Shown here in pieces: positions 2,712 to 52,095 of a stretch of 52,095 nucleotides of DNA; positions within the stretch are counted from its first letter, which is position 1; each line of letters opens with the position of its first letter. The notes under the pieces were generated by a model that ran no database searches, was not told where the DNA came from, and saw only the letters and a program-made list of their open reading frames with translations. A program made the translations under genes and the position numbers. The DNA comes from an uncultured Acidimicrobiaceae bacterium (lineage in GTDB: Bacteria > Actinomycetota > Acidimicrobiia > Spongiisociales > ZC4RG35), in contig CAZTXD010000003.1 in assembly GCA_964617995.1 (NCBI GenBank), positions 18,470 through 70,564 on the forward strand, in the 5' to 3' direction.

Positions 2712-3689
2712 ATGTCGGAAACAGCTCGAAACATGTCCCATCAGGCGAGTACCGTTCCCCGGATGCTCGACCCTCTCGTACAAGCACGCGGGCTGACCAA
2801 ACGGTTCGGGGAGTTCGTGGCCGTGAACGGAGTCGACTTCCAGATCACGTCGGGTGAGGCCTTCGGCTTCCTCGGCCCCAACGGCGCCGGCAAGACCTCG
2901 ACGATGAAGATGATCACCACCGTCAGCCCCATCTCCGACGGCGAGATGACCGTGTTCGGCCTCGACCCCGCCACCGACGGTCCGTCCATCCGGAGCCGCC
3001 TCGGGGTCGTTCCCCAGGAGAACAACCTCGATGAGGAGCTCACCGTGGCCGAGAACCTGTACATCTACGGCCGCTACCACGACGTTCCCAAGGCGACGAT
3101 CCGGGCGCGCATCGACGAGTTGCTGTCGTTCGCGCAGCTCGAGGAGAAGCGCACCGCCAAGGTGGAGGCTCTGTCGGGCGGCATGAAGCGGCGGCTGATC
3201 ATCGCCCGAGCGCTGATCAACAGCCCCGACCTGGTCATCCTCGACGAGCCCACCACCGGCCTCGACCCCCAGGCTCGCCACATCCTCTGGGACCGCCTCT
3301 ATCGGCTCAAGCGGGAGGGCGCCACCCTCATCATCACGACCCATTACATGGACGAGGCCGAGCAGCTCTGCGACCGCCTGGTGGTGATGGATCAGGGCAA
3401 CATCGTCGCCGAGGGGTCGCCCTCGGAGCTGATCTCCCGGTACTCCACCAGGGAGGTGGTGGAGTTGCGGTTCGCTCCCGGCGAGATCGACGGGGAGGTC
3501 GAGCGCCTCGACGGCCTGGCCAAGCGCATGGAAGCCCTCGCCGACCGGGTGCTGCTCTACACCGACGACGCCGACACTCTCATCGACGGCATCCACGATC
3601 GGGACGTGCAGTTCGACCAGCGGCTCACCCGCCGCTCCACCCTCGAGGACGTTTTCTTGCATCTGACGGGACGAAGGCTGATCGACTGA
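2712..3689 (+). CDS. ABC transporter ATP-binding protein (DrrA/NodI-like, ABC-2 exporter type)
   Basis: Walker A GPNGAGKTS, signature LSGGMKRRL, Walker B LVILDEPTTGLD and H-loop TTHYMDEAE are all present. Confidence 0.92.
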   Translation: MSETARNMSHQASTVPRMLDPLVQARGLTKRFGEFVAVNGVDFQITSGEAFGFLGPNGAGKTSTMKMITTVSPISDGEMTVFGLDPATDGPSIRSRLGVVPQENNLDEELTVAENLYIYGRYHDVPKATIRARIDELLSFAQLEEKRTAKVEALSGGMKRRLIIARALINSPDLVILDEPTTGLDPQARHILWDRLYRLKREGATLIITTHYMDEAEQLCDRLVVMDQGNIVAEGSPSELISRYSTREVVELRFAPGEIDGEVERLDGLAKRMEALADRVLLYTDDADTLIDGIHDRDVQFDQRLTRRSTLEDVFLHLTGRRLID

Positions 3690-4483
3690 TGGCTGCGGTC
3701 ACCAACGCCCTCCACGTCCAGGAGTCCTTCTACATCGGCTACCGGCGGACGTGGAGAGGGCGAATCATCTCCACGTTCCTCAACCCGGTGCTGTTCCTGG
3801 CGGGGATGGGTTTCGCGCTGGGCAGCATGGTCGACCGGGGAGCGGGTGAGGCCGAGCTGCCGATCCCCTTCCTGACATTCGTCGCCACCGGCCTGCTGGC
3901 AGCCACGTCCATGCAGACGGGCTTCGGCGAGGGAGCCTGGCCGGTGATGGCCGGCATCAAGTGGCGCAAGACATTCGACGCCGTCCTCACCACTCCGGTG
4001 ACCGTGGCCGACCTCATCAACGGCATGCTCGTGTGGGGGGCGATCCATCTCACCTTCACGATCGGGGTCTACGCCGCCGTGGCGGTGGTGGTGGGGGCCA
4101 TCGAGCCGATCCCGGCTCTCGTCGCCCTCGTCCCGGCCGTGCTCGGCGGACTCGCCTTCCAGGCCACGGCTACCGCCATCACGTCACGAATCGAGGACGA
4201 GACCGGTCTCACCACCATGTTCCGCTTCGGGATCATCCCCATGTTCCTCTTCTCCGGCACGTTCTTCCCGATCTCCCAGCTCCCCGACTTCCTCGAGCCG
4301 GTCGCCATCGCCACGCCGCTGTTCCATGCCGTCGAGCTGGTGCGGAAGCTGGCGTTGCCCGAGGTGGGGGCACCGGTGGTGTCGTCGATCCCCCTGTGGG
4401 TCCACGTCGCCTATCTGCTGGCGATGACGGCGATTGCCTGGGTCCTGGCGATCCGTTTCCTGCGTGAGAGGCTCCAGAAGTGA
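3689..4483 (+). CDS. ABC-2 type transporter permease
   Basis: The start overlaps the upstream stop (TGATG). The protein is multi-pass and hydrophobic, about 264 aa, in the position expected of a DrrB/NodJ-like partner. Confidence 0.85.
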   Translation: MAAVTNALHVQESFYIGYRRTWRGRIISTFLNPVLFLAGMGFALGSMVDRGAGEAELPIPFLTFVATGLLAATSMQTGFGEGAWPVMAGIKWRKTFDAVLTTPVTVADLINGMLVWGAIHLTFTIGVYAAVAVVVGAIEPIPALVALVPAVLGGLAFQATATAITSRIEDETGLTTMFRFGIIPMFLFSGTFFPISQLPDFLEPVAIATPLFHAVELVRKLALPEVGAPVVSSIPLWVHVAYLLAMTAIAWVLAIRFLRERLQK

Positions 4484-5280
4484 CCACCGTGACCACGGCG
4501 CGACCGGCCGTCCGGCCCGGGTGGCGGGCCCACCGCCTGCTGGAACGCAACCTCCTCGTCTACCGCCGGCTCTGGAAGGTCATCTTCAGCGGCTTCTTCG
4601 AACCCGTCTTCTACCTCTTCTCGATCGGGATAGGGCTGGGGGCCCTCGTCGGCGAGGTCACCGGGCCCGGAGGGGCGTCGGTCTCCTACACCGAGTTCGT
4701 GGCGCCCGCCCTCCTGGCGGCATCGGCGATGAACGGGGCGGTGCTCGAGTCGACGATGAACGTGTTCTTCAAGCTCAAGTTCGGCAAGGTCTACGACGGC
4801 ATGGTCACCACACCCCTCCAGGCGATGGACATCGCCGTCGGTGAGATCACGTGGTGTCTCATCCGCGGCCTCATCTATGCCGCGGGGTTCGTGGTGGTGG
4901 CACTGATCATGGGTCTCACCACGGGCTGGCTGTGGCCGCTGGCGCTGGTGTCCGCCGTGGTGATCGGGTTCGCCTTCGCCGCCTGCGGGCTGGCCGCCAC
5001 GACCTTCATGAAGAGCTGGCAGGACTTCGACCTGGTCCAGCTCGTGACTCTGCCCCTGTTCCTGTTCTCGGCGACGTTCTACCCGCTCGACGTCTACCCC
5101 CCGTTCCTCCAGGCGGTCACCCGACTCTCCCCGCTCTACCACGGCGTCGAGTTGATACGGGGCTTCATGCTCGGGATCCTCGACTGGTCGATGGTCGGCC
5201 ATGCTGCCTTCCTGTTGGCGATGGGCTCGATCGGCCTGGCCATAACCCGTCGCCGCCTGGAAAAGCTCCTCCTCACCTGA
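4480..5280 (+). CDS. ABC-2 type transporter permease (second paralog)
   Basis: GTGA overlap with the upstream gene. Its 266-aa hydrophobic profile parallels the preceding permease. Confidence 0.85.
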   Translation: MTTVTTARPAVRPGWRAHRLLERNLLVYRRLWKVIFSGFFEPVFYLFSIGIGLGALVGEVTGPGGASVSYTEFVAPALLAASAMNGAVLESTMNVFFKLKFGKVYDGMVTTPLQAMDIAVGEITWCLIRGLIYAAGFVVVALIMGLTTGWLWPLALVSAVVIGFAFAACGLAATTFMKSWQDFDLVQLVTLPLFLFSATFYPLDVYPPFLQAVTRLSPLYHGVELIRGFMLGILDWSMVGHAAFLLAMGSIGLAITRRRLEKLLLT

Positions 5281-49636: not shown

Positions 49637-50404
49637 GTGGATGGATCACCTCTCCGGGGGCTACCGGTGAACGCAAGCAGCAGCCATCTGCGCGCCGAGT
49701 TGCAGGCACGAACCGGGATCGACTTCGCCGACTATGCCGACGACGAGCTGGTCGACGCCGTCACCGGTTGGTCGGGTCTGGTCGGCCTGGTCGGGGATCT
49801 GCTGATCGCAGCCGGGACCGGTCTCGCTGTGCTGGTGTCCCTGTCGCTCGCCGCCGCTCTGGGCGAGTGGTCGCCGGAGGAGCGCATCGCCCTTGTGGCC
49901 ACCGGTGCCACGCTGGGGCTGGGAACCGCCGCACTCCTGCTGGTACGGCGGGTACGCCGGCGCACCCCCCGCGAGACCACCAGGGCGTTCGACCTGGCGG
50001 GGAGAATGGCCGGACGAGTCGCCTCCGACATCGAATCCGGAAGGTTGAAAGTGGGCGTCGGTGACGCCGCCCGGGGCCTGGTGATCGTGGCCGCTCTGCC
50101 CACGATGACGAGAGTTGCCCGCCGTCGGTTCCCCCTGGTGGGTCTTCTCGTCGCTCCCGTCACGACGGCTCTCGTGACCCGGATCCTGACCCGGGCCTGG
50201 CCACCAGGAGCCGCCGGCACGCCACCCGACTCGGTCGCGGCCACCGCCCGCCGGATCGAGTTCACCCTCGACTCTGCCCGCGACACGGTGGTCTCGAGAC
50301 TGGAGGCGGCTGTGCGCTGGGCGACGCTACCTCTCCTCGCCGGCGGCGTCACCCTGATCCTCGTCGGTGCCACCATCGCCCTCATCTCGCTGATGGGACC
50401 GTGA
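49637..50404 (+). CDS. Hypothetical multi-pass membrane protein
   Basis: The ORF has 4-5 hydrophobic segments, and its stop overlaps the sigma-factor start (GTGA). The start codon is uncertain. Confidence 0.45.
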   Translation: MDGSPLRGLPVNASSSHLRAELQARTGIDFADYADDELVDAVTGWSGLVGLVGDLLIAAGTGLAVLVSLSLAAALGEWSPEERIALVATGATLGLGTAALLLVRRVRRRTPRETTRAFDLAGRMAGRVASDIESGRLKVGVGDAARGLVIVAALPTMTRVARRRFPLVGLLVAPVTTALVTRILTRAWPPGAAGTPPDSVAATARRIEFTLDSARDTVVSRLEAAVRWATLPLLAGGVTLILVGATIALISLMGP

Positions 50405-50958
50405 GTGCAACAGCAGCGGGTGACCGGGGGTTCTATATGGTGATGGACGACCTCTGCCTGCGGCTTGCCTCCGACCTCGACGCTGCCTTCCCCGATCTCG
50501 TCGACCACCTGTCGACCGACGTCTTCTCCGGCCTGAGACGGCTGACAGGAGCCGACGAGGCCGAGGACCTGACCCAGGAGACGTTCATCAGGGCCTACCG
50601 GGCCCTGAGCGGCTACGACGCCGACCGCATCCGGGAGCTCCGGCTGCGGGGCTGGGTGTGGACGATCGCCCTCAACCTGGGCCGCAACCACATCCGCGAT
50701 CGGTCCCGCCGTCCCACTCCGGTGGAGCTAGAGGACCGCTTCGCTTCCGAGGACCCGGAACCGGCCGATGCCGCTGCCTGGGACCGGAGGCTGGCCGTGC
50801 TCCCGATAGCGCAGCGACGCGCCGTGGTACTGCGGCACGTCGTCGGACTCGACTACGAGGAGATCTCCGAAGCGATGCGCCGCCCGGAGACGACGGTCAG
50901 GAGCGACGTCCATCGTGGCCTGGAGAAGCTGAGACGAGTGATGGAGACAGAACAATGA
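50401..50958 (+). CDS. ECF-type RNA polymerase sigma factor
   Basis: Region 2 reads DLTQETFIRAYRAL...GWVWTIALNLGRNHIR. Region 4 reads LPIAQRRAVVLRHVVGLDYEEISEAMRRPETTVRSDVHRG. An alternative start is ATG 50437. Confidence 0.88.
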   Translation: MSATAAGDRGFYMVMDDLCLRLASDLDAAFPDLVDHLSTDVFSGLRRLTGADEAEDLTQETFIRAYRALSGYDADRIRELRLRGWVWTIALNLGRNHIRDRSRRPTPVELEDRFASEDPEPADAAAWDRRLAVLPIAQRRAVVLRHVVGLDYEEISEAMRRPETTVRSDVHRGLEKLRRVMETEQ

Positions 50959-51692
50959 CGAGCGAAATCGAAACCGGGTTGAGCAATCTGCGCTCCGCCG
51001 CCCCTGCAGGCACCGCCACTTCCGTTGCCCTGGGGGTGGGGATCGTGGCCGGCTTCAGCGTCCATGACGCCCCCGTGGGACGGGTGGGGGTGGTGTTCAC
51101 CCCGGCCGGAGTCCGGGAGGTGAGGCTCATCGACGAGGTCGACGATGCCGCCGTGGAGGCCAGGCCGCCGAGAGAGTGGGCGAGTCGCATCCCCCGGGCC
51201 CTGGAGGAAGGACGACCCGGCGACCTGCCGCTCGACCTCACCGACGTGTCCTCGTTCCGCCGCACGGTCCTGGAGCAGGCGGCCACCATCCCCCGGGGAG
51301 AGGTCCGGTCCTACGGCTGGCTCGCCCGGCACATCGGCAAGCCGGGGGCGTCACGGGCCGTGGGCTCGGCTATGGCCACCAACCCGGTGCCCCTCATCAT
51401 CCCCTGTCACAGGGTCGTGCGATCGGATGGTCGGATCGGCGCCTACTCACTGGGAGGGCCGGAGAACAAGTGGACGTTGCTCCGCCACGAGGGCGCCCAG
51501 CCGGAGCGCCTGGAGGATCTGGCGAGCTCGGGCGTCCGCTATCTGGGTTCGAACACGACCGGGATCTTCTGCGTGCCCTCGTGTCACGCCGCCCGCCGCA
51601 TCGAAGCCGATCACCTGGCCATGTTCCGGTCGGACGCCGAAGCAGCCGCCGCCGGGTTCCGGCCCTGCCGGATCTGCCGACCCCTGGGATGA
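50955..51692 (+). CDS. O6-alkylguanine-DNA alkyltransferase (Ogt/MGMT) fused to a C-terminal Ada-type Zn(Cys)4 domain, with no HTH
   Basis: ATGA overlap with the sigma gene. The AGT core has FRRTVLEQAATIPRGEVRSYGWLA....RAVGSAMATNPVPLIIPCHRVV. The C-terminal 50 aa read TTGIFCVPSCHAARRI.....F.S..EAAAAGFRPCRICRP, giving a C-x3-C ... C-x2-C pattern. Confidence 0.85.
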   Translation: MTSEIETGLSNLRSAAPAGTATSVALGVGIVAGFSVHDAPVGRVGVVFTPAGVREVRLIDEVDDAAVEARPPREWASRIPRALEEGRPGDLPLDLTDVSSFRRTVLEQAATIPRGEVRSYGWLARHIGKPGASRAVGSAMATNPVPLIIPCHRVVRSDGRIGAYSLGGPENKWTLLRHEGAQPERLEDLASSGVRYLGSNTTGIFCVPSCHAARRIEADHLAMFRSDAEAAAAGFRPCRICRPLG

Positions 51693-51703
51693 TCCGGACG
51701 TGG

Positions 51704-51735
51704 GACGGGCCCGCCCCCGATGGGGCGGGCCCGTC
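51704..51735. terminator. Perfect 14-bp GC hairpin between convergent genes
   Basis: GACGGGCCCGCCCC-CGAT-GGGGCGGGCCCGTC lies between the stops at 51692 (+) and 51737 (-). There is no U-tract. Confidence 0.55.
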
Positions 51736-51736
51736 G

Positions 51737-51880
51737 TCATCGTGACCTCCGGGGTTTGTCCCGGGGAGGTCTTCGGTAGCGGTCTCTGTCGTTCTTCCTT
51801 CGGACCGGCCTCTCGGCCTCAGGCCGGTGGTATCGGGCCCGACGGACGGCGTCGACCGCGCGGTATGAGGTATGCACCAT
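51737..51880 (-). CDS. Possible 47-aa highly basic small protein
   Basis: ATG 51880 lies 6 nt after GAAGGAG. The product is MVHTSYRAVDAVRRARYHRPEAERPVRRKNDRDRYRRPPRDKPRRSR. Arg-rich ORFs also arise by chance in GC-rich DNA. Confidence 0.3.
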   Translation of the reverse strand: MVHTSYRAVDAVRRARYHRPEAERPVRRKNDRDRYRRPPRDKPRRSR

Positions 51881-51969
51881 GGCATGCTCCTTCACTGCAG
51901 GGCGCGTCGGAGATGACGGCCCGGGGTCGGATGACTCGCGCGGAGTCGATTGACGGGCGTTTCGCTCCG

Positions 51970-52026
51970 TCAGCCGGCGAGGATGCCGGCGGCGGAGGGA
52001 ACGCCGTTGCTGATGAACATCGTCAC
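51970..52026 (-). CDS. Possible 18-aa hydrophobic peptide
   Basis: GTG 52026 lies 9 nt after GGAAGGAG (52036-52043). The product is (M)TMFISNGVPSAAGILAG, followed by a stop. Confidence 0.22.
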   Translation of the reverse strand: MTMFISNGVPSAAGILAG

Positions 52027-52056
52027 CTTTGGGTTCTCCTTCCGTCGGGAGCCGAC

Positions 52057-52085
52057 AACTTACGCTGCCCCAGCCGGACTGTCCA
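52057..52085 (-). promoter_or_regulatory. Sigma-A-like promoter driving the small-ORF unit
   Basis: On the minus strand, TGGACA (52085-52080) is followed by a 17-nt spacer and TAAGTT (52062-52057). The SD and GTG lie about 15-30 nt downstream. Confidence 0.4.
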
Positions 52086-52095
52086 GCCATTTAGC

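Follow-up and report, generated by a model that had tools for sequence, protein, structure and literature searches.

An extracytoplasmic function sigma factor paired with an Ada-like alkyltransferase: a candidate anti-sigma factor consumed by alkylation

The DNA analysed here is a 52,095 nucleotide stretch (the window) of contig CAZTXD010000003.1 from an uncultured Acidimicrobiaceae bacterium, and near its 3' end it encodes a sigma factor of the extracytoplasmic function (ECF) type followed by a 245-residue O6-alkylguanine-DNA alkyltransferase (AGT). As read from the sequence, the cassette consists of one promoter, one sigma factor and one alkyltransferase; the latter (hereafter the partner; 50955-51692, plus strand, like all other features of the cassette) is built of an N-terminal extension, an AGT core and an Ada-type zinc module. 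The pairing of the two genes is real and goes far beyond chance. The best-supported mechanism, to which we assign a probability of about 0.45, is that the alkyltransferase serves as an anti-sigma factor that would be consumed by alkylation. A wider proposal built on this is advanced a little more tentatively: the alkyltransferase would represent a new class of anti-sigma factor in which each repair event, whether on O6-alkylguanine or on a methylphosphotriester, takes away one inhibitor for good and frees one sigma factor, the two-helix extension would be the part that binds the sigma factor, and Acidimicrobiia, Chloroflexota and their relatives would possess an Ada-independent adaptive response that measures the depletion of repair capacity.

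To collect relatives of the cassette, a profile built from the partner was run against the GTDB representative genomes, one for each species, and this yielded 80 loci. An ECF sigma gene lies directly upstream and on the same strand in 52 of the 52 testable loci that encode an alkyltransferase with a zinc module, three further zinc-module loci that end at a contig edge being left out of this count. The original prediction, made from the letters of the window, had described a dedicated sigma-alkyltransferase pair and had named synteny of the homologues with ECF sigma genes as one of its tests, and the count bears it out. It had also pointed to the overlap of the sigma stop codon with the next ATG, which can be read directly in the sequence as ATGA (50955-50958) and suggests translational coupling; the same overlap is found in 46 of 48 intact loci, with three frameshifted assemblies (L041, L057 and L058) counted apart. 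A locus from Verrucomicrobiia (L059) was considered as a sigma-less exception until a reading of its open reading frames (ORFs) overturned this, as it encodes a divergent ECF sigma factor with the same ATGA overlap. The cassette occurs in Acidimicrobiia and in many Chloroflexota, Limnocylindrales among them, and also in one metagenome-assembled genome (MAG) of the Rubrobacteraceae and in MAGs assigned by binning to the Acidobacteriota and Verrucomicrobiia. Only the sigma and alkyltransferase genes are conserved across phyla, in more than 50 species, and the flanks differ between lineages; when every ORF lying up to 2 kb from a locus, to either side, was clustered, no neighbour common to the Chloroflexota and the Acidimicrobiia, window included, was found. 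The pairwise identities of the sigma factors correlate with those of their partners (r = 0.81-0.83), and with those of the zinc module alone at r = 0.49. Among the Chloroflexota loci (L013-L058) an EamA/DMT-like membrane ORF follows downstream on the same strand in 29, and an ORF resembling S-adenosylmethionine (SAM)-dependent methyltransferases lies upstream on the opposite strand in 26; neither is present in the Acidimicrobiia or the window.

The sequence elements of the partner do not follow the sigma factor equally. Residues 1-35 (50955-51059) form an N-terminal extension with the motif L..L...AP..L...V..(V/L)GL.D, for which two helices are predicted (residues 2-10 and 20-28) at a predicted local distance difference test (pLDDT) score of 73-88, somewhat below the rest of the AlphaFold2 model. 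The motif is conserved in 51 of 51 aligned sigma-coupled partners, across phyla, and the extension has no match in Pfam even at E<=10. By contrast, the 16 loci with an ordinary alkyltransferase have neither an N-terminal extension nor an ECF sigma gene within 4 kb. All sigma-linked partners have in common some extra sequence ahead of the point where the AGT N-lobe normally begins, and alkyltransferase-only variants with an N-terminal extension of either type retain the sigma factor. Two such variants belong to the window's own clade (L039, partner at 3998-4579, and L051, partner at 3766-4353) and lack the zinc tail without any remnant of it; in both, the sigma gene is retained, overlaps by ATGA and is preceded by the promoter. 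A second clade of tail-less alkyltransferases (L063, L070, L073 and L080) is sigma-coupled in four of four loci, with the ATGA overlap in three of four; its sigma factor belongs to a distinct ECF family, about 31% identical to that of the window and marked by the motif M.PFE.VV..HG.TVLRVCRAV, and no promoter of the window type was found upstream of L070, L073 or L080. Since tail-less variants remain sigma-coupled, the zinc module is probably not the link to the sigma factor, and its role as the coupling element, which the original prediction had implied, is unlikely. The N-terminal extension is, from these comparisons, the better candidate for a contact with the sigma factor, and the zinc module would be an added second input. 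In one locus of the second clade (L073) a further alkyltransferase-like ORF (about 3237-3385, with …PCHRIVG…) ends directly upstream of the sigma gene, giving the order alkyltransferase, sigma factor, extended alkyltransferase. Searches with residues 1-100 of the partner as query returned 2 matches by word-indexed search and 12 by exhaustive single-sequence search, neither of which numbers gives the size of the family.

A promoter of ECF type precedes the sigma gene and travels with it. The -35 box TGCAAC (50406-50411) and the -10 box GGGTTCT (50428-50434) are separated by 16 nucleotides, and a further 8 nucleotides lie between the motif and the ATG at 50443. The comparison of related loci gives a conserved layout of TGCAAC(C/G)G, a fixed spacer, G(G/T)GTTCT, 7-8 nucleotides and ATGGA(C/T). 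Of 41 aligned promoters, 39 have a spacer of the same length and all share the GTT core; from GGGTTCT to ATGGA the distance stays at 7-8 nucleotides. ECF promoters typically have the form AAC...GTT, and here an AAC-type -35 box and a GTT-type -10 box stand ahead of the sigma factor's own gene. The dyad occurs once in the window against 0.08 occurrences expected; with a position weight matrix (PWM) the promoter scores 23.3 bits and the runner-up site in the window 13.5. A matching promoter is present at the equivalent place in 44 related loci from Acidimicrobiia and Chloroflexota, and recognition of the cassette promoter by the cassette sigma factor would be the simplest reading of this joint travel across phyla. 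Because the -10 box is so close to the start codon, the transcript is probably near-leaderless with a 5' leader of 0-1 nucleotide. An element TAC[CG]GT, which fits TANNNT, lies 7-22 nucleotides upstream of TGCAAC in 19 of the 44 loci compared with 0.5% of random 40-nucleotide windows, mostly at a fixed distance of 7-8 nucleotides from the -35 box (for example in L019, L024, L029, L032, L033, L038 and L048); at the equivalent place the window reads GACCGT (50395-50400). The element may serve as an additional promoter of the housekeeping type, or as an operator.

The sigma gene most likely starts at ATG 50443 and extends to 50958, encoding a protein of 171 residues. This start agrees with the length of its homologues, mostly 170-173 residues, and with the conserved ATGGA(C/T) directly after the promoter; gene callers place the start at ATG 50437 (173 residues). 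The original prediction had read a sigma ORF from GTG 50401, of which the sigma identity stands and the start does not: GTG 50401 lies too far upstream, as the conserved promoter (50406-50434) would fall inside the ORF. The protein matches Sigma70_r2 (4.4e-13) and Sigma70_r4_2 (8.1e-14) in Pfam, and among the NCBIfam sigma models only the generic ECF model TIGR02937 is above its cutoff (62.3 against 42.9), with no named sigma equivalog above cutoff in that database. It is thus a small protein (171-173 residues) with regions 2 and 4 only, as is characteristic of ECF (group 4) sigma factors, and the closest solved structures are those of SigE and SigH of Mycobacterium tuberculosis. Region 2.2 has the canonical motif EAEDLTQETF, so there is no sign of intrinsic inactivity or of another mode of activation.

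The partner is, by its residues, a complete and catalytically intact O6-alkylguanine alkyltransferase. The two-lobed core comprises residues 36-185 (51060-51509) and contains PCHRV at residues 150-154 (51402-51416), in which Cys151 (51405-51407) is the acceptor. DNA_binding_1 (PF01035) matches residues 101-181 at 3e-30 and 104.3 bits (cutoff 27), and the NCBIfam model TIGR00589 of the ogt superfamily scores 93.5 bits (cutoff 46.4); the N-lobe family PF02870 has no Pfam match in the partner. An AlphaFold2 model of the single 245-residue chain, with 20 homologues as input, reaches a pLDDT of 92.4 and a predicted template modelling (pTM) score of 0.83, and Foldseek superimposes it on whole AGTs over 154-168 columns with TM scores of 0.72-0.80 on the target, the N-lobe included. 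In an alignment of the core with Ada-C, human AGT and M. tuberculosis OGT, PCHRV and the catalytic residues are in register; Y120, R134, N143, H152 and E179 correspond to human Y114, R128, N137, H146 and E172, and C151 falls on the acceptor position. Neither PCHRV nor any of these residues varies among 20 diverse homologues.

The zinc module occupies residues 191-243 (51525-51683). Ada_Zn_binding (PF02805) matches this segment at 1.4e-12 and 47.8 bits (cutoff 23), covering profile positions 13-64 of 65. Its four predicted zinc ligands, Cys206 (51570-51572), Cys210 (51582-51584), Cys238 (51666-51668) and Cys241 (51675-51677), align to C38, C42, C69 and C72 of Ada (1adn and 1u8b, E about 1e-9), which makes Cys206 the equivalent of the Ada Cys38. 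The four cysteines are invariant in the 20 diverse homologues, and 48 related loci preserve the Cys4 pattern intact. Foldseek places the module on N-Ada (1u8b) with a root mean square deviation (rmsd) of 2.3 Å over 51 columns at 45% identity; in the model, the strands of the module follow a helix formed by residues 183-191, which cannot be aligned to Ada. Pfam and NCBIfam detect no helix-turn-helix (HTH) in the partner, and the protein ends two residues after the module. The complete AGT core with PCHRV, the C-terminal Ada-type zinc module and the missing HTH had all been named in the original prediction, and these analyses agree with it on each. An NCBIfam match below threshold, to the 42-residue 'sunset domain' NF051437 (17.1 bits against 27; 51546-51665, residues 198-237), lies on the zinc module and may reflect a distant relationship of small Cys-rich domains.

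These components can be assembled into a regulatory loop. That the promoter travels together with the cassette points to positive autoregulation and hence to the need for a brake, and since the alkyltransferase is the only other conserved component it is the candidate for that brake. It is proposed that the sigma factor transcribes its own operon from the near-leaderless start and that the unalkylated alkyltransferase keeps it inactive, most likely by means of the N-terminal extension. Alkyl transfer to alkyltransferases of this kind is irreversible, and in human AGT alkylation destabilises the protein and triggers its degradation. In the proposed loop the transfer of an alkyl group during repair, to Cys151 from O6-alkylguanine and/or to Cys206 from DNA methylphosphotriesters, would inactivate or destabilise the holder and so free the sigma factor. 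The freed sigma factor would then drive the synthesis of more sigma factor and more alkyltransferase until fresh, unalkylated protein titrates it again. The cell would in this way sense the consumption of its own repair protein, and through the zinc module it would also respond to methylphosphotriesters, the signal of Ada, as a second input.

Several points weigh against an alkyltransferase that restrains the sigma factor. A contact between the two proteins is a proposal drawn from sequence comparison, and the recognition of the promoter by the sigma factor is inferred from their co-occurrence. Coupling through ATGA and joint inheritance are frequent between any two genes of an operon, and the conservation of the catalytic residues is already explained by a plain repair role. 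As the original prediction had remarked, there is no recognisable anti-sigma factor; the partner has no similarity to an anti-sigma domain in Pfam even at E<=10. No further copies of the promoter were found in the window or within 4 kb on either side of the related loci, to which the view of the regulon is limited. Natural fusions of sigma factor and alkyltransferase were likewise not found among the top homologues of either protein; the fusion candidates were artefacts: P0245 reads the sigma gene out of frame, P0251 is a contig of chimeric origin, and P0249 is an unrelated repeat protein.

Much of this could be accommodated by plain co-expression, where the sigma factor is dedicated to a repair gene whose product only repairs and the signal arrives by way of an unlinked anti-sigma factor, proteolysis or a second promoter. 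All residues needed for repair are intact, the partner bears no likeness to anti-sigma factors, operon coupling alone would account for the ATGA overlap, and the TAC[CG]GT element that 19 of 44 loci carry upstream of the -35 box could act as a second promoter, or as an operator for another regulator. What makes this explanation rather unlikely is that the co-travel of the promoter across phyla suggests self-recognition and that no other conserved gene is present to supply a brake; it also leaves unexplained why the extension is restricted to sigma-linked alkyltransferases.

Two further explanations give the partner an active role of another kind. In one of them, the partner would bind the sigma factor or the holoenzyme as a co-activator, and methylation of Cys206 would confer affinity for DNA and stabilise the holoenzyme at the promoter, so that the sigma factor takes the place of the AraC-type HTH and the cassette amounts to a split version of Ada. 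Methylated Ada activates transcription by contacting RNA polymerase, including region 4 of sigma70, which is a precedent for such a contact, and the full conservation of the site equivalent to Ada Cys38 together with the missing HTH would fit. Against this, zinc-less variants retain the sigma factor and the ATGA overlap (L039 and L051 the promoter as well), the divergence of the zinc module follows that of the sigma factor less (r = 0.49) than does the rest of the partner (r = 0.81-0.83), and the comparison of related loci revealed no upstream DNA element common to all of them, which renders a split-Ada arrangement improbable. More improbable still is a direct sensor of electrophiles in which free alkylating or electrophilic compounds modify the zinc-thiolate centre and the active-site cysteine without any DNA damage, in the manner of RsrA and SigR. 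The partner does offer two nucleophilic cysteine centres, and direct modification of thiols has precedents, as some SN2 agents can methylate Ada directly and compounds that react with thiols elicit a response from RsrA. The AGT residues for DNA binding and base flipping (the equivalents of the Arg finger, Tyr and Asn hinge) are, however, invariant, which points to DNA lesions as the substrate, and a step of sigma binding would be required here too.

The partner was compared with Ada of Escherichia coli, AdaA and AdaB of Bacillus subtilis and the AdaA-AlkA protein plus Ogt of M. tuberculosis. Like Ada, it combines a Cys4-zinc acceptor for methylphosphotriesters and a PCHRV acceptor for O6-alkylguanine in one polypeptide, with zinc ligands and catalytic residues that align, and it is proposed likewise to sense alkylation through its own methylation. 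Unlike in Ada, the order of the modules is reversed, with the zinc module at the C-terminus and the first 12 positions of the zinc profile missing. The partner carries an N-terminal extension and no AraC-type HTH, and so differs from activators of the Ada/AdaA type, in which such an HTH follows an N-terminal zinc module; the transcription component is instead a separate, ATGA-coupled ECF sigma factor.

Among anti-sigma factors, the zinc-containing RsrA and RshA are the nearest in chemistry. They have in common with the partner a zinc-thiolate centre that, once covalently modified, could set an ECF sigma factor free, and the AAC...GTT-type promoter and the proximity of the sigma factor to SigE and SigH are in keeping with this. 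Unlike RsrA and RshA, the partner has no match to zf-HC2 or to any anti-sigma family, its Cys4 site belongs to the Ada fold and not to a helical HxxxCxxC segment, and the coupling persists without the zinc module. The analogy with zinc-binding anti-sigma factors drawn in the original prediction is therefore upheld for the chemistry and not for the domain, none of the latter appearing even at E<=10. Short two-helix anti-sigma segments of about 30 residues (class II, CnrY-type) could span regions 2 and 4 of a sigma factor, and the extension of the partner, as modelled, is similar to them in size and helix count. It differs from them in that no sequence relationship is detectable and in that the extension sits on a soluble enzyme, while CnrY-type segments sit on a membrane protein. 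By analogy with human MGMT, the irreversible and destabilising alkylation of the active-site cysteine might provide a ready-made mechanism of release; we know of no case in which MGMT holds a transcription factor, and degradation in bacteria would use different proteases.

A sigma-alkyltransferase pairing has been catalogued before. According to a 2022 review (PMC8999054, citing Casas-Pastor et al. 2021), group ECF122, with a representative from Cellulomonas, has no anti-sigma factor, its mechanism is listed as unknown, and 6-O-methylguanine DNA methyltransferases are conserved in its neighbourhood as possible regulators. The question raised in the original prediction, whether the pair belongs to an annotated group with a known mechanism, can thus be answered in part: as far as that review goes, the pairing is annotated as ECF122 and a known mechanism is not (PMC8999054). 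The sigma factor of the window resembles ECF122, as described there, in that it adjoins a gene for a 6-O-methylguanine methyltransferase and has no anti-sigma factor, a likeness of neighbourhood alone. The partner in the window has a zinc module; the Micrococcales-type pair L070 of the second clade is without one and its sigma factor is the one about 31% identical to that of the window, and it is more likely that the published ECF122 corresponds to this Micrococcales-type pair. A review of the alkyltransferase family from 2023 is silent on both sigma factors and a fusion to a zinc module, and the literature searched yielded no description of, or experimental work on, the variant with the zinc module, its promoter or its N-terminal extension. 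New here are the strictly sigma-coupled zinc-module variant, the conserved near-leaderless promoter, the sigma-specific extension and the tail-less variants.

The adaptive response to alkylation is the textbook case of a repair protein turned transcription factor, and to our knowledge its workings are understood only where an Ada-type protein brings its own HTH. If the alkyltransferase is indeed an anti-sigma factor consumed by alkylation, the chemistry of Ada would here be wired through the release of a sigma factor, in phyla whose alkylation responses are essentially unstudied, and ECF122 and its relatives would gain a mechanism. With one promoter, two genes and an apparently private promoter motif, the cassette is compact and would make an attractive alkylation biosensor or orthogonal expression switch.

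A GGAG sequence (50943-50946) within the end of the sigma gene, 8 nucleotides upstream of the partner ATG, is a possible Shine-Dalgarno sequence in addition to the ATGA coupling. Upstream of the sigma gene lies an ORF of 255 residues (49637-50404, plus strand) with several hydrophobic stretches that, judged by eye, resemble transmembrane segments. It is kept only in the three nearest loci (L001-L003) at 44-49% identity, and its last codons overlap the sigma promoter. This ORF was considered as an anti-sigma factor and rejected, given that it has no Pfam or NCBIfam match, is restricted to the three nearest loci and has the promoter at its 3' end. Among ten other ORFs of the window, Pfam identified ordinary metabolism genes and none for DNA repair, and scans with Rfam and for tRNAs found no RNA genes in the window; the region 24000-48100 encodes an MFS_3 transporter, a thiolase, a class-V aminotransferase, a molybdopterin oxidoreductase, an ABC ATPase, an epimerase and a glyoxalase-like protein. 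Directly 3' of the partner stop codon, a GC-rich hairpin (51698-51743, plus strand) with a near-perfect 20 bp stem and a 4-nucleotide loop is, judging from its predicted fold, the probable terminator of the operon; an 81-nucleotide segment folds at -54.7 kcal/mol (z = -3.25), and there is no U-tract. The hairpin may also serve the convergent ORF at 51737-52090 on the minus strand, which has no family matches.

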